Source of the DNA: Alphaproteobacteria bacterium
GTDB taxonomy: Bacteria > Pseudomonadota > Alphaproteobacteria > UBA6615
Direction of reading: 5' to 3'
NCBI GenBank assembly: GCA_049601915.1
Contig: JBMYRB010000001.1
Span: forward strand, 330,662-394,661
DNA: 64,000 nucleotides
Shown: positions 10,685-59,897 of the stretch, one piece after another
Numbering within the stretch: position 1 is the first letter of the stretch
Layout of the letters: the number at the start of each line of letters is the position of its first letter
Position numbers and translations under genes: made by a program
The notes under the pieces: model-generated
The model's database searches: none
What the model was told of the DNA's origin: nothing
What the model saw: the letters and a program-made list of their open reading frames with translations, nothing else

Positions 10685-11875
10685 TCAGCTTTCCTTCCGC
10701 CCGATCGCGCCCGCGGCCTTCAGCGCCACGATGTCGTCGGCTGGCAGGCCCCAGGCGGCGAGCGCCTCCTCGGTGTGTTCACCCGGCACCGACGGCGGCG
10801 AGTGGATCTTCCCCGGGGTGCGCGAGAATCTCGGCGCCGGGCCCGGCTGGGTGATCCCCGCCACCTCGACGAAGTTGCCGCGGGCCACGTTGTGGGGATG
10901 CGTATGCGCCTCAGTCATGGACATCACCGGCGCGAAGCACACATCGGTCCCCTCCATGATCTCGACCCATTCGTCGCGGGTCTTGGTCGCAATCACCTCG
11001 GCGAACCGCGCCTTGAGTTCGGGCCAGCGGTCCCGGTCCATCTGGTCGGGCAGGTCGGCGTCGGCGAGACCCAGCTTGTCGAGCAGGATCGCGTAGAACT
11101 TCTTCTCGATGGAACCGATGGAGACGAACTTGCCGTCTGCGCATTCGAACGCGTCATAGAACGGTGCGCCGCCATCGAGGATGTTCGAGGCGCGCTCGTC
11201 GGTGAAGTAACCCGACGCGTGCAGGCCGATCACCGGAATCATCAGGCTCGCCGCACCGTCGACCATGCCGACGTCCACAACCTGGCCCTCGCCGCTGCTG
11301 CGCGCCTCATAGACCGCCGCCATCACGCCGAACGCCAGATACAGCGCGCCGCCGCCATAATCACCGATCAGGTTGAGCGGCGGGGTCGGCTTATCCTTGC
11401 CGCCGATCGCGTGCAGCGCGCCCGACAGGGAGATGTAGTTGATGTCGTGGCCCGCCGCCTTGGCTAGCGTGCCCGTACCGCCGAACCCGGTCATGCGCGC
11501 GTAGACCAGTTTCGGGTTGCGGGCCATGCAGTCGACCGGGCCGAGGCCGAGCTTCTCGGTCACGCCGGGGCGATAGGGTTCGATCAGCACGTCCGCGTTC
11601 TCGACCAGCCGCAGCACCGTCTCGACGCCGTCCGGGTTCTTCAAATCGACGGCCACGGAAGGACGAGAACGGGTCGCCAGATCGAACTCCGCACCCCGCG
11701 GCACGCCGAGGCCCGCATCGGCCGGCCGGTCGATCTTGATGACGTCGGCGCCCAGATCGGCCAGCAGCATGGCCGCGAAGGGCCCGGGGCCGATACCCGC
11801 CAGTTCCACCACCTTGAGGCCTACCAAAGGGCCTGATCGTGTTCGCGTATCGCATTGGTCGGTTGCGTTCGACAT
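10685..11875 (-). CDS. CaiB/BaiF family CoA transferase (family III)
   Basis: ATG at 11875 is preceded by GGAGAAGAGG. Family III CoA-transferase motifs appear: LVGLKVVELAGIGPGPFAAMLLADLGADVIKID. Confidence 0.85.
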   Translation of the reverse strand: MSNATDQCDTRTRSGPLVGLKVVELAGIGPGPFAAMLLADLGADVIKIDRPADAGLGVPRGAEFDLATRSRPSVAVDLKNPDGVETVLRLVENADVLIEPYRPGVTEKLGLGPVDCMARNPKLVYARMTGFGGTGTLAKAAGHDINYISLSGALHAIGGKDKPTPPLNLIGDYGGGALYLAFGVMAAVYEARSSGEGQVVDVGMVDGAASLMIPVIGLHASGYFTDERASNILDGGAPFYDAFECADGKFVSIGSIEKKFYAILLDKLGLADADLPDQMDRDRWPELKARFAEVIATKTRDEWVEIMEGTDVCFAPVMSMTEAHTHPHNVARGNFVEVAGITQPGPAPRFSRTPGKIHSPPSVPGEHTEEALAAWGLPADDIVALKAAGAIGRKES

Positions 11876-11930
11876 GGTTCCTCTTCTCCCCCGTTTTGCC
11901 GTACCCTGCGGGGTAAGACAGCCGAGTGCA

Positions 11931-13244
11931 ATGGTCAACTCGGGCCTTCAATACACCCCAATCGAGCCACAGCGTTTCATGACCGATCAACCCGCCCCAA
12001 GGTCCTTCGCGGCGCTGCGCCACCCCGGCGCGCGGGCCTATCTGATCAGCACGGCGCTGGCGATGAACGCCGACGCGGTCGAGCATGTAATCAGCTACCT
12101 GATCATCTGGGAGAAATTCCAGTCGCCGACCCTGGGCGGCTTCGCGGTCGTCGCCCACTGGCTACCCTTCCTGTTTTTCTCGATCCATGCCGGGGCGCTC
12201 GCCGACCGGTTCGACCCGCGACGGGTGATCCAGGCGGCCATGCTCCTGTTCATGGCCGTCTCGGCGGCCTGGGGTCTGCTGTTCATGACCGACAGCCTCG
12301 AGATGTGGCACGCGGTTATCCTGCTGATCGTGCACGGGCTGGCGGGCGCGCTCTGGGCGCCGGCCTCCCAGCTCTTGATTCATGACATCGTCGGGCGCGA
12401 GCAGCTCCAGTCCGGCGTGCGCCTGCTGGCCACATCGCGTACCCTTGGTATCGTCCTCGGCCCCGCCGTCGGCGGCGGGCTGCTGCTCCTCGTCGGGCCG
12501 GTCTGGGGTATCTTCATCAACATCCTGATCTATGTGCCCCTGACCTGGTGGCTGATCGGGGCACCCTACGGGCCGGCGTTCCGCACGGGCGCGGAGGCCG
12601 CCGCGGCGACCGGCCGGCGTGCCATCAAGGGTTTCTCGGATATCGTTTCGACGATCCGCACGGTCTCGACCGACAGGGTGATCATGCCCATGACCATGGT
12701 GGTCGGCGTCGCCGCACTGATGGTCGGCAATGCCCATCACCCGCAAATGCCGGAGTTCGCGCTGGACCTGGGCAGCAGTGGCGACGGGTTCCTGTATTCC
12801 GCCCTACTGGCGGCGAACGCCGCCGGGGCGCTGGCCGCCGGGCTGATCCTCGAGACCCGCTCTCTGTTGCCCGCGCGGCGCAACACGGTGTTCATCCTGG
12901 TCATCCTCTGGTGCTTCGCCATGGGCGGCTTCGCCATCACATCCGACATCCGGGTGGCGATGGTGCTGCTGTTCGTCGCCGGCTTCCTCGATCTGTCCTA
13001 CAATTCCATGGCCCAGACCCTGGTCCAACTCCACGCCGCGCCCGAAATTCGCGGGCGGGTGGTGGGCCTCTATGTGATGGCGGCCTTCGGCCTGCGCGCC
13101 ATCTCCGGCGTCACGGTGGGCATGGCCGGCAGCCTGGTCGGCATCCACATGTCGCTTGCCATCAGCGCCGGCATCGTCTTCGTGGTGGTGATGGGCCTCG
13201 TCACACGCACCTATGTGACGGAGCCGCGTGGCAGCGCCACATGA
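11931..13244 (+). CDS. MFS transporter
   Basis: Twelve predicted TM segments. The gene is divergent from caiB. The start is uncertain: ATG 11931 or ATG 11979. Confidence 0.75.
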   Translation: MVNSGLQYTPIEPQRFMTDQPAPRSFAALRHPGARAYLISTALAMNADAVEHVISYLIIWEKFQSPTLGGFAVVAHWLPFLFFSIHAGALADRFDPRRVIQAAMLLFMAVSAAWGLLFMTDSLEMWHAVILLIVHGLAGALWAPASQLLIHDIVGREQLQSGVRLLATSRTLGIVLGPAVGGGLLLLVGPVWGIFINILIYVPLTWWLIGAPYGPAFRTGAEAAAATGRRAIKGFSDIVSTIRTVSTDRVIMPMTMVVGVAALMVGNAHHPQMPEFALDLGSSGDGFLYSALLAANAAGALAAGLILETRSLLPARRNTVFILVILWCFAMGGFAITSDIRVAMVLLFVAGFLDLSYNSMAQTLVQLHAAPEIRGRVVGLYVMAAFGLRAISGVTVGMAGSLVGIHMSLAISAGIVFVVVMGLVTRTYVTEPRGSAT

Positions 13245-14431
13245 CGACGGATAGCCCTCCCGCCCCGATCGCCCTGCTGGTCGCGCTGATGGTCGCCAGC
13301 CAGGTGGCCATCACGATCTTCCTGCCGTCGCTGCCGGCCATCGCGGAAGACCTCGAGACCAGCCAGGCGCTCGCACAGATGACCGTGTCGGTCTATCTCG
13401 GCGCCTTCGCGCTCGCCCAACTGGTGGTCGGCCCGCTGTCGGACGCGGTCGGGCGGCGCCGGCCGCTGATCACGGGCCTGGTCCTGTTTACCCTCGGCGG
13501 TCTTGCCTGTGCGCTGGCGCCGAACATCACCTTCCTGATCGCTGGCCGGGTGATCCAGGCCATCGGCGGCTGCACCTGCATCGTCATCTCCCGCGCCATC
13601 GTGCGCGACACCACCGACGGGCCCGCCGCCACACGGGCCATGGCCTATCTCGGCATGTCCCTCGCGGTCGCCCCCATGGTCGCGCCGCTGATCGGCGGGC
13701 AGCTCGAGGTACATTTCGGCTGGCAGTCGAACTTCCTGGCCACAGCACTGCTCGGGGCCGGCGCGCTCGTCGCAACGCTGATTACATTGCGCGAAACATT
13801 GCCGCCGGAGGCCCGCAAGTTCACCCGCGCCGGTGCTCTCGCGCGGACCTATCTGCGCCTGTCGCGCATGACCCGCTTCATGGGCTACAACCTGAGCACC
13901 GGCGCGATGGGCGCCACCTTCCAGGCCTTTATCGCCGGGACCCCCATCGCCTTCATCGTGGTCATGGGCGTCACCCCCGAGGCCTTCGGTTTCTTCATCC
14001 TGTCGACGCCGGCCGGCTACATCATCGGCAACTATATCGCCAGCCGGCTGGCGCAGCGGGTCTCGCGGGCCCGGATGATCTCGATCGGCGGCCTCCTGGC
14101 GATTGCCGGAACGGGCGCGACGGTGGTGCTGGCGCTCATGGGTCTCGACACGCCCTACACGCTGATCGTGCCGATGTTCATCTACTCCTGGGGCTCGGGC
14201 TTCCTGGTGCCCAATGGCCTGGCGGGCGCACTCACGGCGGTCGAGCCCGCGGCCGCCGGTTCCGCCGCAGCACTGGGCGGCTTCATCCAGATGAGCGCGG
14301 GTTTCCTGAGCACCCTGGCGGTAGCCAGCCTCGTCCAGACATCATTCCTGCAGCTCGGCCTGCTGATGCTCGGCTGCACGATCCTGTCCTGGCTTTTCTT
14401 TGTGGTGATGGTCCGGCGGGACGCCGCCTAA
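13241..14431 (+). CDS. Bcr/CflA family MFS drug-resistance transporter
   Basis: ATG at 13241 overlaps the upstream stop (ATGA). MTTDSPPAPIALLVALMVASQVAITIFLPSLPAIAEDL is typical of the Bcr/CflA N-terminus. The longer ORF from 12548 is a spurious extension. Confidence 0.8.
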   Translation: MTTDSPPAPIALLVALMVASQVAITIFLPSLPAIAEDLETSQALAQMTVSVYLGAFALAQLVVGPLSDAVGRRRPLITGLVLFTLGGLACALAPNITFLIAGRVIQAIGGCTCIVISRAIVRDTTDGPAATRAMAYLGMSLAVAPMVAPLIGGQLEVHFGWQSNFLATALLGAGALVATLITLRETLPPEARKFTRAGALARTYLRLSRMTRFMGYNLSTGAMGATFQAFIAGTPIAFIVVMGVTPEAFGFFILSTPAGYIIGNYIASRLAQRVSRARMISIGGLLAIAGTGATVVLALMGLDTPYTLIVPMFIYSWGSGFLVPNGLAGALTAVEPAAAGSAAALGGFIQMSAGFLSTLAVASLVQTSFLQLGLLMLGCTILSWLFFVVMVRRDAA

Positions 14432-14871: not shown

Positions 14872-14963
14872 GTTGGGCTCCGGGTGTGAGAGTTCCCGGC
14901 AATGTTATCGCGGGCGGCCCCGTCTCTGCTATGATGCTGGTGAATACAACAAGGAATAAAACC

Positions 14964-15587
14964 ATGTCCGATCCTGTCGTTTTAGAGGTCTTTGCCGACT
15001 ACGTTTGACCCTGGTGCTACCTCAGCACCGTGCGTGTTGAAAAACTCCGCCAAACCTACGACGTCGACATCCAGACCGTTCACTTCCCGCTACACCCCGA
15101 CACGCCGCTTGACGGCCAGTCGCTGGAACAACTCTTCGCCGGTCGCGATGTCGATCTCGATGCCATGTATGAGGGCATGAAGGCGCGGATGGACGAGGAA
15201 GGCCTGCCCTACGGCAAGCGCACCCACACCTACAACAGCCGGCTGGCCCAGGAACTCGGCAAGTGGTCCGACACCCAGCCGGGCGGCGATGCGATCCACA
15301 TGAAGCTCTACGAGGCCTATTTCGTCGACGCCAAGAATATCGGCTATGTCGACCTGCTGGTGGAGATCGCGGAGGGGGTCGGGCTCGATGGTGCGGCCGC
15401 GCGCGAGGTGCTGGAGAAACGCACCTTCGAGGCGGCCATCGACGCCGACTGGGAGAAATCCCGCCTGTATGGCGTCACCGGCGTGCCGACCTACGTGGCC
15501 GACGCCAAGGGCGTCGTCGGCGCCCAGCCCTATGAGGTGCTGGAGCAGCTGATGGACGCAGCGGGGGCGCAGAAGAAGGGCGGCTGA
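14964..15587 (+). CDS. DsbA/FrnE-like thioredoxin-fold oxidoreductase with an in-frame TGA at the first Cys of CPWC (candidate selenoprotein, or pseudogene)
   Basis: ATG at 14964 follows AAGGAAT. The reading frame MSDPVVLEVFADYV-TGA-PWCYLSTVRVEKLRQ... stays continuous through the TGA at 15006..15008. The rest of the protein is FrnE/DsbA-like. The stop-bounded ORF 15030..15587 would lack the active site. Confidence 0.5.
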
Positions 15588-15606
15588 GCCGCCCGGTTTC
15601 CGTTCC

Positions 15607-27855: not shown

Positions 27856-28004
27856 TTTTGGTGTCCTCCTGTTTGCCGGATACACTAGCCCAGGTTGAGA
27901 ATCCATTCCCGGGTCTTCTCGCCGCACATACGCGGATCATATCGGGTTTGCGCGACTGATCCACGGTTCGTACAAAAGATCAACACGAACAGGAGAGACC
28001 CGCC

Positions 28005-28322
28005 ATGCCCACACCCCAGCTGACCCCGCCCTACGCCGTCGAGATCGTGAACTACAAGCTCAACGACGGGGCCGACCCGGATGCTTATCTTGCGCTCTGC
28101 CGACAGGTGGGCGCGGAGTTCACCAGCGCCCAGCCCGGATTCCTGCACCGCGAGATCGGCCGCGGCGAGGACGATATCTGGGCCATCATCGTCACCTGGA
28201 AAACTGCCGACGATGCGCGCAATTCGATCAGCAACATCGACACGATCCCCGACGTGGTGAAGGAATACATGGCGATGATCAATCGCGAGACCCTGACCCG
28301 CGCCATGTTCGACGTGGTGTGA
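28005..28322 (+). CDS. Hypothetical protein (possible ABM/Dabb-like alpha+beta barrel)
   Basis: A 105-aa ORF lies 13 nt upstream of a GST gene. Weak resemblance to ABM-like folds only. Confidence 0.5.
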   Translation: MPTPQLTPPYAVEIVNYKLNDGADPDAYLALCRQVGAEFTSAQPGFLHREIGRGEDDIWAIIVTWKTADDARNSISNIDTIPDVVKEYMAMINRETLTRAMFDVV

Positions 28323-28334
28323 CAGGCGCGCGCC

Positions 28335-28949
28335 ATGATGAAGATATATCATGCACCCGAGACCCGCTCGACCCGGATCATCTGGCTGTTCGAGGAGCTG
28401 GGCCTGCCCTACGAGCTGGAGACCTTCAAGCTCGGCAGCCCGGATATGCGTGCAGAGGACTATCTGAAGGTCCATCCGATGGGCCGGGTCCCGGCGCTGG
28501 ACGATAGCGAGGTGACGATCTTCGAATCCGGCGCCATCGTCGAATATGTGCTGGCCAGATACGGCAACGGCGCCCTGGTCCCCGACCAGGCCTCGCCGGA
28601 CTTCGCCGAATATCTGCAGTGGCTGCACTATGCCGAGGGCATGCTGATGCCGCCGGTGAACACGATCGTGGTGGAGAAATTCTTCCTGTCCGAGGCGCGG
28701 CGCAACCAGGTCAATATCGACCGGGCGACCAAACTGCTGACCCGGATGCTGGGTGCCGTCGAGCAACGGCTTTTCGACCGGGACTATCTGGCCGGAGACT
28801 TCTCCGGCGCCGACATCATGTCCGGCCATGCCACGATCGTGGCAGCCCGCCTGGGCGCCGACATCACCGACAAGCCGAACGTCGCCGTCTACATCGAGCG
28901 CCTGAAGGCCCGCCCGGCGCTCCAGGCCGCCTACGCGGCGGCGGCCTGA
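28335..28949 (+). CDS. Glutathione S-transferase
   Basis: MMKIYHAPETRSTRIIWLFEELGLPYELE...HPMGRVPAL shows the GST N-terminal thioredoxin-like motif. Confidence 0.85.
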   Translation: MMKIYHAPETRSTRIIWLFEELGLPYELETFKLGSPDMRAEDYLKVHPMGRVPALDDSEVTIFESGAIVEYVLARYGNGALVPDQASPDFAEYLQWLHYAEGMLMPPVNTIVVEKFFLSEARRNQVNIDRATKLLTRMLGAVEQRLFDRDYLAGDFSGADIMSGHATIVAARLGADITDKPNVAVYIERLKARPALQAAYAAAA

Positions 28950-46264: not shown

Positions 46265-47137
46265 ATGAGCACACCCAGGCTTGAAGACCTGCTCGAACGG
46301 GGCGACCGCGCGCCGAATTTCTTCCTGCCCGATCAGCGCGACATCATCATCAATCTGAACGACAAGGCCCGCGGCGGGCCGCTGTTTGTCCCGCTGTATC
46401 CGACCCAGAAGGACCCGGGCGCGCTGGGCGAGTTGCAGGCGATGTTCCGCGCCGCACCCGCCATGCTGGAGGCCAGCGCACATCTGTTCGCGATCAGTGC
46501 CGACCCGATACCCCTGGTGCAGAAAATCGCCGCCAAGAACGACCCGGGGGTTTTTCTCCTGTCCGACGCCGACAAGAAAGTCGCGAGACGGTTCGGCGCC
46601 CGCGGCAAGCTGATAGGCTTCGTCTTCGGGCCCGATCAGAAGGTCCGCACAGTGCTCCGGCCCGGCGACACCCCGATCGCCGAACGCGCCGTAGCCAAAA
46701 TCGCCGCCATGCCCCCCGGTTCCCTCGCCCGCAAAGCTGCACCCGCCTATCCTGGGTATCCCCGAAGTCTTCTCGCCTTCCTTTTGCCAGTGGCTGATCG
46801 AACAGTTCGAGAGTCGGGGCAACGAGCCATCCGGCACGCTGCGCATGGAAGAAGGCAAGATGGTTCACGTCACCGATGGCGTGACCAAGCGACGACGGGA
46901 ACATCATGTGGTCGACAAGGATTTTCTCGACGCGATCGGCACCCGGATCGAACGCCGTGTGCTGCCGGAGATCCGGAACGCCTTCCACAGCGACATTCGT
47001 TTCGTCGAGGAGTTCAAGATCGTGCGCTACGACGCCGACGTCGGCGGGTTCTTCCGCCCCCATCGCGACAACACCACGCTGGGCACCGCGCATTGACGCT
47101 TCGCCATGACCCTCAACCTCAACACCGAGGATCATGA
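46265..47137 (+). CDS. BCP/peroxiredoxin-like thioredoxin-fold protein lacking all Cys; open frame runs on over a decayed downstream gene
   Basis: ATG at 46265. The first roughly 155 aa align with the BCP topology, but the peroxidatic motif is PGA instead of PGC and the sequence has no Cys at all. No stop codon occurs in this frame until 47137, so the C-terminal third is probably spurious read-through. Confidence 0.45.
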   Translation: MSTPRLEDLLERGDRAPNFFLPDQRDIIINLNDKARGGPLFVPLYPTQKDPGALGELQAMFRAAPAMLEASAHLFAISADPIPLVQKIAAKNDPGVFLLSDADKKVARRFGARGKLIGFVFGPDQKVRTVLRPGDTPIAERAVAKIAAMPPGSLARKAAPAYPGYPRSLLAFLLPVADRTVRESGQRAIRHAAHGRRQDGSRHRWRDQATTGTSCGRQGFSRRDRHPDRTPCAAGDPERLPQRHSFRRGVQDRALRRRRRRVLPPPSRQHHAGHRALTLRHDPQPQHRGS

Positions 47138-47339
47138 GGGTGGAGAATTATGGTTCCCGGAATATGGCCAGGCGAGCTAACGCCCGGCGACCGGAGAAGC
47201 GGCGATATTCTCGTACAACCTGCTGCACGAGGCGACCGATGTGACCAAGGGGCAGCGATATTTTTTGCTGTCGTTCATGAATGACGAAAGCGGCCGTCAG
47301 TTTCTGGAACGCAACCGCAACAGAGGACAGGCCACCTAG
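46709..47339 (+). pseudogene. 2OG-Fe(II) oxygenase (P4Hc/PKHD-hydroxylase-like) relic with a frameshift and two in-frame stops
   Basis: Frame-0 translation from 46695 reads ...ILGIPEVFSPSFCQWLIEQFE...VGGFFRPHRDNTTLGTAH-TGA(47094)-RFAMTLNLNTEDHEGGELWFPEYGQAS-TAA(47178)-RPATGEAAIFSYNLLHEATDVTKGQRYFLLSF...TAG(47337). It carries the HxD...H and RxS-type oxygenase motifs. No in-frame start exists, which implies a frameshift near 46709..46740. Confidence 0.6.
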
Positions 47340-56791: not shown

Positions 56792-57229
56792 GCTTTCTCT
56801 CCAATAGAATTTATTCGACGGGTACGCCCGTCCGCGAGCGGCGTATAGCAGAGCAACTGGGGCCGCCACAACCGATCGGCAGTCAGGAGAATGTCGTCGC
56901 CGACGCAGGCAACATTGTAACAAGTGATTAAAGTGCAACAGTGTGACGAAAACCGACAAAAGCATTTGATTCATCCATCGCTGACACTGCGCTGTAACAC
57001 GTCCGCCCTAAGCGGCTTTTGATCCAGATCAATACGCCTTTGCCGATTGCAATTAAGAATGACTTGCAATTAACCGCGAGGGGTAATACCGTTCCCTGCA
57101 GTTGCGACTAGTTCTCATTCGCAGGTTCATCTCAGGAGAAGAAAATACGTAAACGTCTGCGAAGAGACAGAACGAGGCCGAACCCGGCCATATTTTCCCA
57201 ACCAGCACCGCTTCGGAGGTATTTGAGCG

Positions 57230-58363
57230 ATGGTTAAGAAAGTTCTACTTGGGGGCACGGCCCTCGCAGGTATCGCCGCGCTGGCGCTGCCGGCAAGCGC
57301 GGGCCAGGTCGGTTCCAAAGACCTGATGAGCGTGACCCTTGGCGGCGAACTCCGGTCCAACGTCGCCTTCATCGACCAGGACGTGTCGGCGGCCGCCGGG
57401 CGCGGCTACACCTTCTCGGTGGATGAATCCGAGATCAAGATCGGTGCCAAGGCAACTGCGGACAACGGCCTCAAATATGGCGTGAATGTCGAATTGAACG
57501 CCGGCGCCGGCGATACGGCCAATGCCGACGAGGCATATGCCTCCATCGACAACGACGGCTGGGGGCGCGTTGAAATGGGCGATCAGGACGATGCGACCGA
57601 TCGCATGCACGTCGCTTCGCACAATATCCTCGTGGGCCGGGCCGGTGCCGACGGTGACGCGGCTGATTACATTGCTTTCGGCGGTACGGCCATAGATGCA
57701 CCGGGTGTCGATTCTACCAGTGACGACACGAAGATCAGCTATTTCTCGCCGCGCTTCGGCGGCATCCAGATCGGTGGTTCGCTGACCCCGGACTCGGGCG
57801 AAGTCTCGGGTGGTGCGGCCACGTCCGATGCCGATAATGACGGCGATTTCGAAAATGTCTTTGGCCTGGCCATTAACTACAAGGGCAAGTTCGACGATGT
57901 CGGGATCGAGGCAGGCCTCATCGGCGAGTTCGGCGACAGCGAGACTGCGACCGGTGCCGACACCGAAGGCGAGATCGAGACCATCGGTGTGGGTATCAAT
58001 GTCACATTCGCCGGCATCGGGCTCGGGGCGGAATATGTCGACTTCGCCGAAAAGGGCATCGCTGCGGCGGCCCGCACTGCCGGCCGGGACGCGGGCAATT
58101 ACTATCAACTCGGCGCGTCGTACCAGACCGGCCCCTGGGGAGTCAGCCTCGGCTGGTTTGAAAGCTCGGTCTCGAACGCGACGGGCAGCGGTGGTGATAC
58201 CGATGTCACCATCATCTCGCTTGATGCCGCCTACAAGGTGGCGCCGGGCTGGGAACTGATGGGGTCCCTGCATTTCGGTGAAGTGGACAACATGGATTCG
58301 ACGGCCGTCGAAGTGAACAACGATGGCACGGCCTTCATCATCAGTAACCAGTTCAACTTCTAG
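57230..58363 (+). CDS. Outer-membrane porin (alphaproteobacterial general porin family), paralog 1
   Basis: Signal peptide, alternating amphipathic beta-strands and the C-terminal NQFNF (terminal Phe). Confidence 0.85.
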   Translation: MVKKVLLGGTALAGIAALALPASAGQVGSKDLMSVTLGGELRSNVAFIDQDVSAAAGRGYTFSVDESEIKIGAKATADNGLKYGVNVELNAGAGDTANADEAYASIDNDGWGRVEMGDQDDATDRMHVASHNILVGRAGADGDAADYIAFGGTAIDAPGVDSTSDDTKISYFSPRFGGIQIGGSLTPDSGEVSGGAATSDADNDGDFENVFGLAINYKGKFDDVGIEAGLIGEFGDSETATGADTEGEIETIGVGINVTFAGIGLGAEYVDFAEKGIAAAARTAGRDAGNYYQLGASYQTGPWGVSLGWFESSVSNATGSGGDTDVTIISLDAAYKVAPGWELMGSLHFGEVDNMDSTAVEVNNDGTAFIISNQFNF

Positions 58364-58402
58364 TCCCCAACGGCCCCCCGGGTCCGCAAGATCAACCTCC
58401 CG

Positions 58403-58434
58403 CGCGGCATCCCTGTTGGATGTCGCGTTTCTTT
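58403..58434 (+). terminator. Rho-independent terminator after porin 1
   Basis: CGCGGCATCC-ctgtt-GGATGTCGCG forms a 10-bp stem with one G.U pair, followed by TTTCTTT. Confidence 0.7.
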
Positions 58435-58760
58435 AGCCTGTTCTGCGCGATGTTTAGGCACGACTGCTCAAATATCGTGCAAGTCATTAATTTCATTGAT
58501 GTATTTTTGCAACGGAACTGAAAAAATAACGACAACAATTGCCGTTCTGGATTGCGGTCCGGACATCTCTGAATAGGATGTCTTCAATTCCACTGCCAAA
58601 AATCAATAAGCAAAATCCCAGCAAAGTGGAGGACGCAGCGCAAAGAATTCGGGCCCGGTCAGGTCCGTCATATTCGGATGTTGTGTCTGATATGTGTAAT
58701 GTTATAACAATATTATCTTGCGCATGATGCGCGAGATCCACTTGCTGGAGATTGATTCCC

Positions 58761-59897
58761 ATGAATACGAAGAAACTTTTACTGGGCACAAGTGCACTCG
58801 TCGGTGTTGCCATGCTCGCGACCCCGGCGATTGCCGGCCAGGTCGGATCGAGAGACGCGCTGGCAGTCACACTGGGCGGTGAACTCCGCTTCCAGGTCGG
58901 CCTGGTCGACCAGGACGTATCTGCAACCGCAGGTCGCGGTTACCAATTCAAGGTCGATGAGTCTGAGATCGTCGTTGGCGCGGAAGCTACGGCTGACAAC
59001 GGCATCAAGTACGGTGTGAGCATCGAGCTGAACGCCGGTGCCGGCGACGTTGCAGCCGCTGATGCTGCTTGGGCTTTCATTGAGAGCGATGCGTTAGGCC
59101 GTATCGAAATGGGTGACCAAGACGATGCTACCGACCAGTTGTTCGTAGAGAGCGACGATATCCTTGTCGGTCGCGCCGGCCCCGATGGGGACGTGGCCGA
59201 CTATATCGCCTTCGGTTCAGGCGGTGGTATCTCTGCTACCGGCAACGCCTCGACTGGCGGAGCAACTAAGCTGATCTATCTCACGCCGCGAATCGGTGGC
59301 TTCCAGCTGGGCGGCTCGCTCACGCCGGACGTCGGAGAGACCTCCGGCGGTGCGGCCACGGCCGATGCCGACAACGACGGCGACTACGAAAACGTGATCG
59401 GTCTCGGCGTCAATTACGAAGGCAAGTTCGATGACGTCTCCTTCGTCGTCAGCCTGACCGGCGAGTTCGGCGACAGCGAGACGGCAGCGGGTGCCGATAC
59501 CGAGGGCGATCTCGAGACGATCGCCGTTGGTGCCACGGTCAACTTCGGGGCGTTCAGCCTCGGCGCCGGCTATGTCGACTTCGCAGAGGCGGGCCAGACC
59601 GCTGCGGCCATGGCCGCGGGCGCGGATTCGGGCTCCTATTACTCGATCGGCAGCTCTTACACGACCGGCCCCTGGGGTGTCAGCCTGAACTGGTTCGACA
59701 GCACCAAAAGCAACACCACGGGCATCAGCGATACCGACATCCAGATCATCTCTCTCGACGTCGCCTACTCCGTGGCGCCAGGTTGGGAGGTCAACCTGTC
59801 GGCCAATGTCGCCGAAGTCGACAACATGAACGCTACCGCCGTGCCGGTTAACAATGACGGCACCGTCGTGATCCTGTCCAACCAGTTCAACTTCTAG
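58761..59897 (+). CDS. Outer-membrane porin, paralog 2 (about 65-70% identity to paralog 1)
   Basis: ATG at 58761 follows GGAG. It has the same architecture as paralog 1 and the same NQFNF C-terminus. Confidence 0.85.
   Translation: MNTKKLLLGTSALVGVAMLATPAIAGQVGSRDALAVTLGGELRFQVGLVDQDVSATAGRGYQFKVDESEIVVGAEATADNGIKYGVSIELNAGAGDVAAADAAWAFIESDALGRIEMGDQDDATDQLFVESDDILVGRAGPDGDVADYIAFGSGGGISATGNASTGGATKLIYLTPRIGGFQLGGSLTPDVGETSGGAATADADNDGDYENVIGLGVNYEGKFDDVSFVVSLTGEFGDSETAAGADTEGDLETIAVGATVNFGAFSLGAGYVDFAEAGQTAAAMAAGADSGSYYSIGSSYTTGPWGVSLNWFDSTKSNTTGISDTDIQIISLDVAYSVAPGWEVNLSANVAEVDNMNATAVPVNNDGTVVILSNQFNF

Follow-up and report, generated by a model that had tools for sequence, protein, structure and literature searches.

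A probable selenoprotein gene of the DsbA-like family, with an in-frame UGA and a covariation-supported stem-loop, in a marine alphaproteobacterium

A 64-kb stretch of the alphaproteobacterial contig JBMYRB010000001.1 (referred to as the window, i.e. the whole stretch of DNA that was analysed) carries on its forward strand, at positions 14964..15587, a gene for a FrnE/DsbA-type protein whose reading frame contains a TGA codon at the position of the first catalytic cysteine. Our results indicate that this is very probably a real selenoprotein gene, in which the UGA is recoded as selenocysteine (Sec) via a selenocysteine insertion sequence (SECIS) situated directly downstream, within the coding region. 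At the level of the gene family the selenoprotein status is near-certain, and the doubt that is left concerns the presence of the Sec machinery in this particular genome. A Cys-to-Sec swap had already been proposed in a first-pass annotation of the window; it is now backed by the conservation of the TGA and by near-invariant downstream nucleotides with compensatory changes, while the hairpin then chosen as the SECIS is replaced by an overlapping one (see below).

The gene, its product and the conserved TGA

The start codon and the ribosome-binding site (RBS) in front of it were read directly from the sequence (Table 1). The frame translates as MSDPVVLEVFADYV-TGA-PWCYLSTVR... and then stays open until the TGA stop at 15585-15587; apart from the internal TGA, the gene shows no further lesion. 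With U read as C, the product matches positions 2-190 of 191 of the Pfam profile PF01323 (DSBA) with E=6.8e-32. The first-pass annotation had described the RBS AAGGAAT, the ATG at 14964 and a frame open through a full FrnE/DsbA domain, with which the sequence and Pfam agree, and had placed the TGA at 15006-15008 on the first Cys of a CPWC motif, as does the alignment of homologues.

The protein begins at strand beta-1, and no signal peptide was found in it. Cys-type residues occur at two positions only, 15 (TGA) and 18 (Cys18), which form a UxxC motif (U15-P-W-C18) in a PF01323 domain, the combination listed for form 1 of the DsbA-like selenoprotein family. Residues T172, G173, V174, P175 and T176 are invariant in the homologue alignment (A1), and P175 presumably adopts the cis conformation known from the family. 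The product ends at residue 207 (...AGAQKKGG). The inverted repeat that spans its stop codon separates the gene from a convergent glutathione S-transferase (GST) gene and resembles a bidirectional terminator.

An identical TGA-containing sequence is present in the assemblies of two independent sequencing runs (L081 and L082), so the TGA is not an assembly error. It is also conserved in relatives. A scan of species-representative genomes (one genome per species) yielded 80 loci; 79 of them cover the codon, and the 80th ends before it. TGA was found in 78 of the 79, in the context xFxDY[VI]-TGA-PWC, and TGC in one (L033). The carriers comprise Alpha-, Beta- and Gammaproteobacteria, Methylomirabilota, Dormiibacterota and others, the alphaproteobacterial ones being Rhodospirillaceae, Stellaceae and the isolate Desertibaculum subflavum. 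The nearest orthologues come from marine Rhodospirillaceae-like metagenome-assembled genomes (93, 87 and 85% identity), and the TGA is kept in relatives whose proteins are 63-93% identical to that of the window. Metagenomes were scanned with a 35-nucleotide (nt) pattern allowing TGA, TGC or TGT at the codon and any Y/R combination at alignment columns 21 and 31 (see below); among the matches listed, at least 120 contigs, the codon was TGA in 120 of 120. The comparison of TGC with TGA in relatives, which the first-pass annotation had put forward as a check, comes out in both collections on the side of TGA.

The 14 codons 5' of the TGA keep the start codon and the frame across the loci, and their variation is synonymous: F10, D12 and Y13 are invariant and V14 is 97% conserved, with varying third positions (TTC/TTT, GAC/GAT, GTC/GTT/GTG/GTA). 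Conserved residues combined with varying third positions indicate that this segment is translated in the same frame as the rest of the gene. Both flanks of the TGA are under purifying selection at the protein level; a UGA aligned with the catalytic Cys, and the coding potential on both its sides, are thus conserved across species.

These data bear directly on the possibility that the gene is a pseudogene, i.e. an ordinary DsbA/FrnE gene with a recent TGC to TGA nonsense mutation. TGA is indeed one base away from TGC, the window holds a real pseudogene with two stops, and no Sec machinery is visible in it (see below). However, a recent nonsense mutation cannot account for a TGA conserved across the loci, down to 63% identity, behind an upstream frame that is translated. 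Nor does it fit the intact state of the rest of the gene, or the fact that a structured element with covariation follows the codon only in the TGA forms. At the family level this explanation is refuted, and for the window gene we consider it very improbable.

The SECIS element and the overlapping hairpin

The 79 Sec-form sequences were aligned and folded by RNAalifold, which was given no hint of the structure. It returned a lower stem (columns 11-13/38-40), a 7-bp upper stem (columns 17-23/29-35) and a 5-nt loop, CGKGC. The loop columns (24-28) are nearly invariant, and in 17 relatives the loop G is followed by G in place of U. There is hardly any variation in columns 1-41 after the TGA, synonymous sites included, as is seen from the frozen codons Leu CTC (78/79), Thr ACC (78/79), Val GTG (61/62), Arg CGT (79/79) and Ile ATT (60/64). 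The third-position entropy amounts to 0.67 in the frozen stretch versus 1.05 in the conserved codons of the remaining gene (Mann-Whitney p=0.008).

Pairing within the SECIS is maintained in 98.1% of the cells, versus 28-44% after a shift of the partners by 1-3 columns, and the covariation score was reached by 0 of 500 shuffles. Covariation is seen at three pairs. Pair 21-31 is U-A in 65 sequences, C-G in 14 and broken in none, despite the amino-acid change that the switch entails (AGU...AUU with Ile versus AGC...GUU with Val); it switched at least three times on a neighbour-joining tree of the remaining protein sequence, and among the metagenome matches listed it is U-A in 109 and C-G in 11, with no other combination. 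Pair 12-39 joins two synonymous third positions 27 nt apart, one in the Cys18 codon and the other in a Lys codon; it occurs as C-G (35), U-A (31), U-G (5) or a mismatch (8), with at least 10 changes on each side. Pair 19-33 changed from A-U to G-C in one relative (L051) and to U-A in another (L080). A double change was also noticed in the loop of L061 (3043-3102, alignment A2), where CGUGC is replaced by GGUCC, C24 to G and G27 to C having changed jointly, both synonymously.

In the published model of the bacterial SECIS (bSECIS), a G is required in the first two positions of the loop, usually followed by G or U (PMC13188914). The element at 15016-15045 has the properties of such a stem-loop (PMC13188914): an apical loop of 5 nt (published range 3-9 nt), an upper stem of 7 bp (4-16 bp), a G in the second loop position with U or G after it (published: G within the first two positions), a UGA-to-loop spacing of 20 nt (16-37 nt), and an upper-stem free energy of -7.8 kcal/mol (-7.5 kcal/mol or lower).

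Five Cys-form genes (L033, L203, L205, L207 and L208) are devoid of the SECIS. They have CGC for CGT and no early loop G, they keep 4-8 of the 10 SECIS pairs, and their stem energies are weak or positive. With a covariance model of the 79 sequences, held-out Sec forms scored 69-79 bits and the Cys forms 21-52 bits; the window element scores 75.7 bits and is the only strong match in the 64 kb. The closest Cys form, L203 (2001-2609), keeps YLST and 8 of the 10 pairs and has lost the loop G, which suggests that it may carry a decaying or incipient SECIS. L203 adjoins genes for a pyridine-nucleotide-disulfide oxidoreductase and for MerB (organomercurial lyase), which hints that the gene may, in this lineage, be connected with mercury or thiol detoxification.

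The hairpin that the first-pass annotation had regarded as the candidate SECIS, GGUGCU-ACCUC-AGCACC at 15013-15029, overlaps this element. It is part of the minimum free energy structure of the single sequence, and its stem (15013-18/15024-29) is pairable in 99.3% of the cells across the 79 sequences. In the window it is, moreover, more stable than the upper stem of the SECIS (-9.2 versus -7.8 kcal/mol), which counts against our interpretation. Yet no pair of this stem changed on both sides, shuffles equal the observed value, and the local fold is unexceptional (z=-1.55, with 15 of 200 shuffles equally stable). Family-wide, the SECIS is the more stable of the two structures in 67 of the 79 sequences. 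The covariation of column 12 with column 39 favours the lower stem of the SECIS; the partner of column 12 in the hairpin, G20, is invariant and pairs with C or U, and so provides no evidence either way.

The loop of the hairpin (AYCUC across the family) contains no G, in line with the caveat already attached to it that the canonical G/U is missing, and it starts 10 nt past the UGA, outside the published 16-37 nt (PMC13188914). Its two arms are already fixed, the 5' one by the codons for Trp, Cys and Tyr and the 3' one by the SECIS, whose 5' arm it is, so that their complementarity may be a by-product. When the UGA occupies the A site, this 5' arm of the hairpin would lie within the ribosome. 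The hairpin as such therefore stands, whereas its role as the SECIS, with no covariation, no loop G and too short a distance from the UGA, does not. We treat it as a by-product, and the comparison of the aligned sequences supports, as the putative SECIS, the overlapping stem-loop shifted towards the 3' side, with its loop at 15029-15033.

The hairpin might nevertheless be a functional partner of the SECIS. As the two structures are mutually exclusive, they could constitute a ribosome-gated switch, in which the hairpin at 15013-15029 would hide the 5' arm of the SECIS and the SelB site until it is melted by the ribosome, a few codons before the UGA. If such a switch operates, the folding of the SECIS would be timed to the arrival of the ribosome. 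The wide pairability and the stability of the hairpin in the window speak for a role of this kind, but the lack of two-sided changes, the position and composition of the loop and the constraints on both arms speak against it as they do against the hairpin being the SECIS, and we think either role unlikely. A related suggestion, to which we give equally little credence, starts from the near-identity of the 40-nt SECIS in at least five phyla and its occasional linkage to selB-selC: the gene could be a horizontally mobile Sec gene equipped with a 'portable' SECIS.

Table 1. Positions of the features of the 14964..15587 locus in the window.
Feature	Position	Strand	Remarks
Shine-Dalgarno-like AAGGAAT	14951..14957	+	6 nt (14958-14963) separate it from the start codon; direct read
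Predicted complete selenoprotein coding sequence	14964..15587	+	207 codons including Sec15, FrnE/DsbA-like; translation, PF01323, FrnE PDB 5CNW
Predicted Sec codon UGA	15006..15008	+	U15 of the U-P-W-C redox motif; aligns with Cys in full-length homologues
Hairpin GGUGCU-ACCUC-AGCACC	15013..15029	+	Alternative structure, excludes the SECIS
Resolving Cys18 codon TGC	15015..15017	+	Third base is column 12, SECIS lower stem
Whole putative bacterial SECIS	15016..15045	+	Lower stem, internal loop, upper stem, apical loop; RNAalifold, 79 sequences
SECIS lower stem, 5' arm (G11 C12 U13)	15016..15018	+	Partner 15043-15045; C12/A39 mismatched in the window
SECIS upper stem, 5' arm (UCAGCAC)	15022..15028	+	7 bp; 99.2% of cells paired
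SECIS apical loop (CGUGC)	15029..15033	+	G at loop position 2, then U; starts 20 nt past the UGA
GTG in the SECIS loop	15030..15032	+	False start chosen by gene callers, giving a 185-residue product; open reading frame list
SECIS upper stem, 3' arm (GUGUUGA)	15034..15040	+	RNAalifold, pairing counts
SECIS lower stem, 3' arm (A38 A39 C40)	15043..15045	+	RNAalifold, slid-partner control
Proline codon of the cis-Pro loop (P175 in GVTGVPT)	15486..15488	+	Third active-site element of the thioredoxin fold; alignment A1
Inverted repeat GGGCGGC-TGA-GCCGCCC	15578..15594		Perfect 7-bp GC repeat, the 3-nt loop being the stop codon; consensus scan

Translation start, decoding of the UGA and genomic context

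Among the homologues in public protein collections, the close ones (70-90% identity, more than 25 clusters) all have 184-185 residues and begin with MRVEK or MRIEK just past the TGA, at a GTG or ATG within the SECIS loop, while more distant ones (59-69% identity) are full length and have CPWC. The former are truncated because gene callers stop at the conserved TGA. An exact look-up of the 185-residue product of the window gene matched two short Logan contigs. The family is systematically mis-annotated in these collections (P0001-P0020 and others).

It could be argued that the truncated form is the true product, a 185-residue protein starting at GTG 15030, and that the 22 codons upstream are an untranslated leader. 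The uniform truncation of the database entries of close relatives is consistent with this, as is an in-frame GTG or ATG at the 15030 position in most relatives. However, such a protein would be devoid of strand beta-1 and of the entire redox motif that belongs to the thioredoxin fold (the Pfam match starts at residue 7), and the 14 codons upstream of the TGA would have kept their start, frame and invariant F, D and Y, with synonymous variation, in an untranslated leader. In 17 relatives the codon in question is GGG, which is not a start codon; in the window this position is a GTG within the SECIS loop, with no RBS noted at that site. A start at 15030 is, in our opinion, very improbable.

A third explanation assumes that the UGA is read in some other way, either through a genome-wide reassignment of the codon or by read-through with a near-cognate Trp or Cys tRNA. 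Nothing specific points to this, except that the sequence alone would allow some insertion of Cys when selenium is scarce. By contrast, UGA serves as a stop codon in the window: it ends many of its genes, among them the DsbA-like gene itself (15585-15587). The stem-loop conserved downstream agrees with a SelB-type SECIS, and in four contigs the gene adjoins selB and tRNA-Sec. We regard such alternative decoding as extremely improbable.

The four contigs (L141, L154, L157 and L173) were found among the at least 120 metagenome contigs listed, and their UPWC orthologues share 63-65% identity with the protein of the window. In each of them the UPWC gene is located 0.5-6 kb from selB (selB regions: L141, 4613-8588; L154, 3-1397; L157, 43-2004; L173, 6410-8404), and a tRNA-Sec with the anticodon UCA overlaps the 3' end of selB. 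In L141, selA lies upstream of selB and overlaps it. A nested arrangement of this type was described for alphaproteobacterial selB genes by Mukai in 2021 (PMC8124441), and the same overlap is present in all four contigs; it is a feature of related contigs and not of the window, and gives indirect support for Sec machinery in the genome of the window.

Several observations weigh against the presence of a functional selenoprotein gene in this genome, in addition to the greater stability of the competing hairpin in the window. The 64-kb window contains no selA, selB, selC or selD: no tRNA-Sec was found in it, and none of the approximately 50 open reading frames (ORFs) scanned with Pfam has a SelA, SelB or SelD domain, as the first-pass annotation had also remarked for selA, selB and selD. 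The lower stem of the SECIS has a C-A mismatch in the window sequence. At least one real pseudogene is present in the window, so gene decay does occur in this genome. Selenium incorporation is not known from experiment for any member of the DsbA-like family, whose functions are largely uncharacterised according to a 2026 review (PMC13188914). Rfam gave no match to the element, either in the whole window at the gathering threshold or in 14900-15200 at a permissive one; we did not weigh this result and treat the scans as uninformative, as no bacterial SECIS family was noticed among their results. In NCBIfam, only a sub-threshold partial match to a different (seleno)lipoprotein family was obtained (33 bits versus a cut-off of 190). 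Taking these points together with the conservation of the TGA and of the SECIS, we still consider actual selenium incorporation and the presence of the Sec machinery elsewhere in the genome to be probable.

Based on our observations, we suggest the following course of events. SelB, carrying GTP and Sec-tRNASec, would bind the CGUGC loop and the upper stem of the SECIS, by analogy with E. coli fdhF. Being about 13 nt 3' of the UGA, this complex should stay folded outside the ribosome as the UGA (15006-15008) enters the A site, and would deliver Sec there in place of release factor 2. The second UGA (15585), which is not followed by a SECIS, would terminate the protein. The product is predicted to be a 207-residue cytoplasmic thiol-disulfide oxidoreductase/isomerase of the FrnE/DsbA type with Sec as the attacking residue (U15-P-W-C18). 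The mature enzyme would cycle between the selenol/thiol and the selenenylsulfide (U15/C18) states, with the usual cis-Pro loop (GVTGVP175T).

The surroundings of the gene are those of an ordinary chromosome (rpoN-hpf-ptsN, rpsA, trpFBA, accD, folC, trxA, addAB, ahcY and porins). Its neighbours, which encode HbpS-like, GST, major facilitator superfamily (MFS) transporter and ATP-binding cassette permease proteins, are shared only with the closest relatives and give the gene no deep functional context. Two pairs of adjacent genes in the window look like tandem paralogues, namely two MFS transporter genes upstream of the locus (11736-14431, + strand) and two Porin_4 genes further downstream (57227-59897, + strand).

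A scan of the window for ORFs that read through a TGA returned only adjacent genes in the same frame, none with a redox motif; the scan was insensitive and missed the DsbA-like gene itself, as its filter required a coding-like GC pattern on both sides and the upstream segment of this gene has only 14 codons. Two loci with internal TGA codons may be mentioned here. At 46695-47339 (+ strand) a 2-oxoglutarate-Fe(II) oxygenase-like ORF (PF13640, E=1e-10 with the stops masked) is interrupted by TGA 47094 (H*RF) and TAA 47178. The TAA rules out TGA 47094 as a second Sec codon, and the gene carries genuine nonsense mutations, just as the first-pass annotation had stated. At 27960-28949 (+ strand) a 120-residue ORF with no Pfam match runs in frame into a GST gene, with TGA 28320 between them; a separate ATG for the GST follows a few codons further on (MKIYHAPE...), and the locus looks like two abutting genes rather than a case of recoding.

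Relation to known systems and significance

Homologues of the window protein bear the JGI (Joint Genome Institute) name 'predicted DsbA family dithiol-disulfide isomerase', which we take to be the name of COG2761. The best match among solved structures is FrnE of Deinococcus radiodurans (5CNW/5CP1; E=4e-21), whose residues 10-213 align with residues 3-195 of the window protein, CPWC lying over UPWC. FrnE is cytoplasmic, as the window protein is predicted to be, neither has a signal peptide, and the window protein shares with the FrnE subfamily the thioredoxin fold with a helical insertion, as judged from the sequence and the 5CNW alignment. They differ in that FrnE has Cys where the window protein has Sec, and in length: FrnE has 260 residues, with a C-terminal tail, whereas the 207-residue window protein lacks the tail and has no Cys beyond U15/C18. 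The tail of FrnE carries a second motif, CxxxxC, which is used for recycling; the second Cys pair typical of the subfamily is therefore absent from the window protein. Periplasmic DsbA proteins of the E. coli type, which have a signal peptide and CPHC, are distinct from it on both counts, as it has no signal peptide and its motif is UPWC.

The 17-nt core hairpin of the window SECIS lies about 13 nt from the UGA, and the SECIS hairpin of E. coli fdhF about 11 nt. In both fdhF and the bSECISearch consensus (PMC13188914) the element is, likewise, a stem-loop of the coding region 3' of the UGA, with a small loop in which G is followed by U or G. There is no sequence similarity between them and the window SECIS, in whose upper stem no bulged U was identified and whose lower stem, in contrast to theirs, is limited to 3 bp with a mismatch in the window.

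The 'DsbA-like protein' selenoprotein family was first reported in 2005 by Zhang, Fomenko and Gladyshev from the Sargasso Sea, with nine sequences of COG2761 type, a UxxC motif and a predicted SECIS (PMC1088965). In the 2008 analysis of the Global Ocean Sampling data it appeared as 'DsbA 1' (pfam01323, UxxC), a marine-enriched family with 63 Sec sequences and 704 Cys homologues (PMC2398784), and in the 2026 review as 'DsbA-like protein form 1' (PF01323, UxxC; PMC13188914). The window gene resembles this family in its Pfam domain, in the position of Sec in UxxC and in having the SECIS directly downstream, and its relatives, like the known members, are carried by marine and soil Proteobacteria. 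We see no difference in kind; on the basis of motif, domain and habitat, the window gene probably belongs to the same subfamily as the published examples AACY01178397 and NIP15863.1.

The family and its mechanism have thus been known since 2005, and the window gene is a further member; the result opens no new biological question. What is added here is covariation support for a two-stem SECIS that hardly varies across phyla; in addition, some contigs link the gene to selB-selC, and the database entries of the family are seen to be systematically truncated. For annotation this means that the collections hold fragments of 184-185 residues deprived of the active site, the correct product being a 207-residue Sec enzyme. 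The family constitutes an unusually clean natural case of a bacterial SECIS constraining the protein-coding sequence, in which Arg is held as the rare codon CGT and residues switch between Ile and Val to preserve a base pair, and it could therefore be helpful in training SECIS predictors. For the organism itself, a marine Rhodospirillaceae-like alphaproteobacterium, the gene implies the use of selenium.

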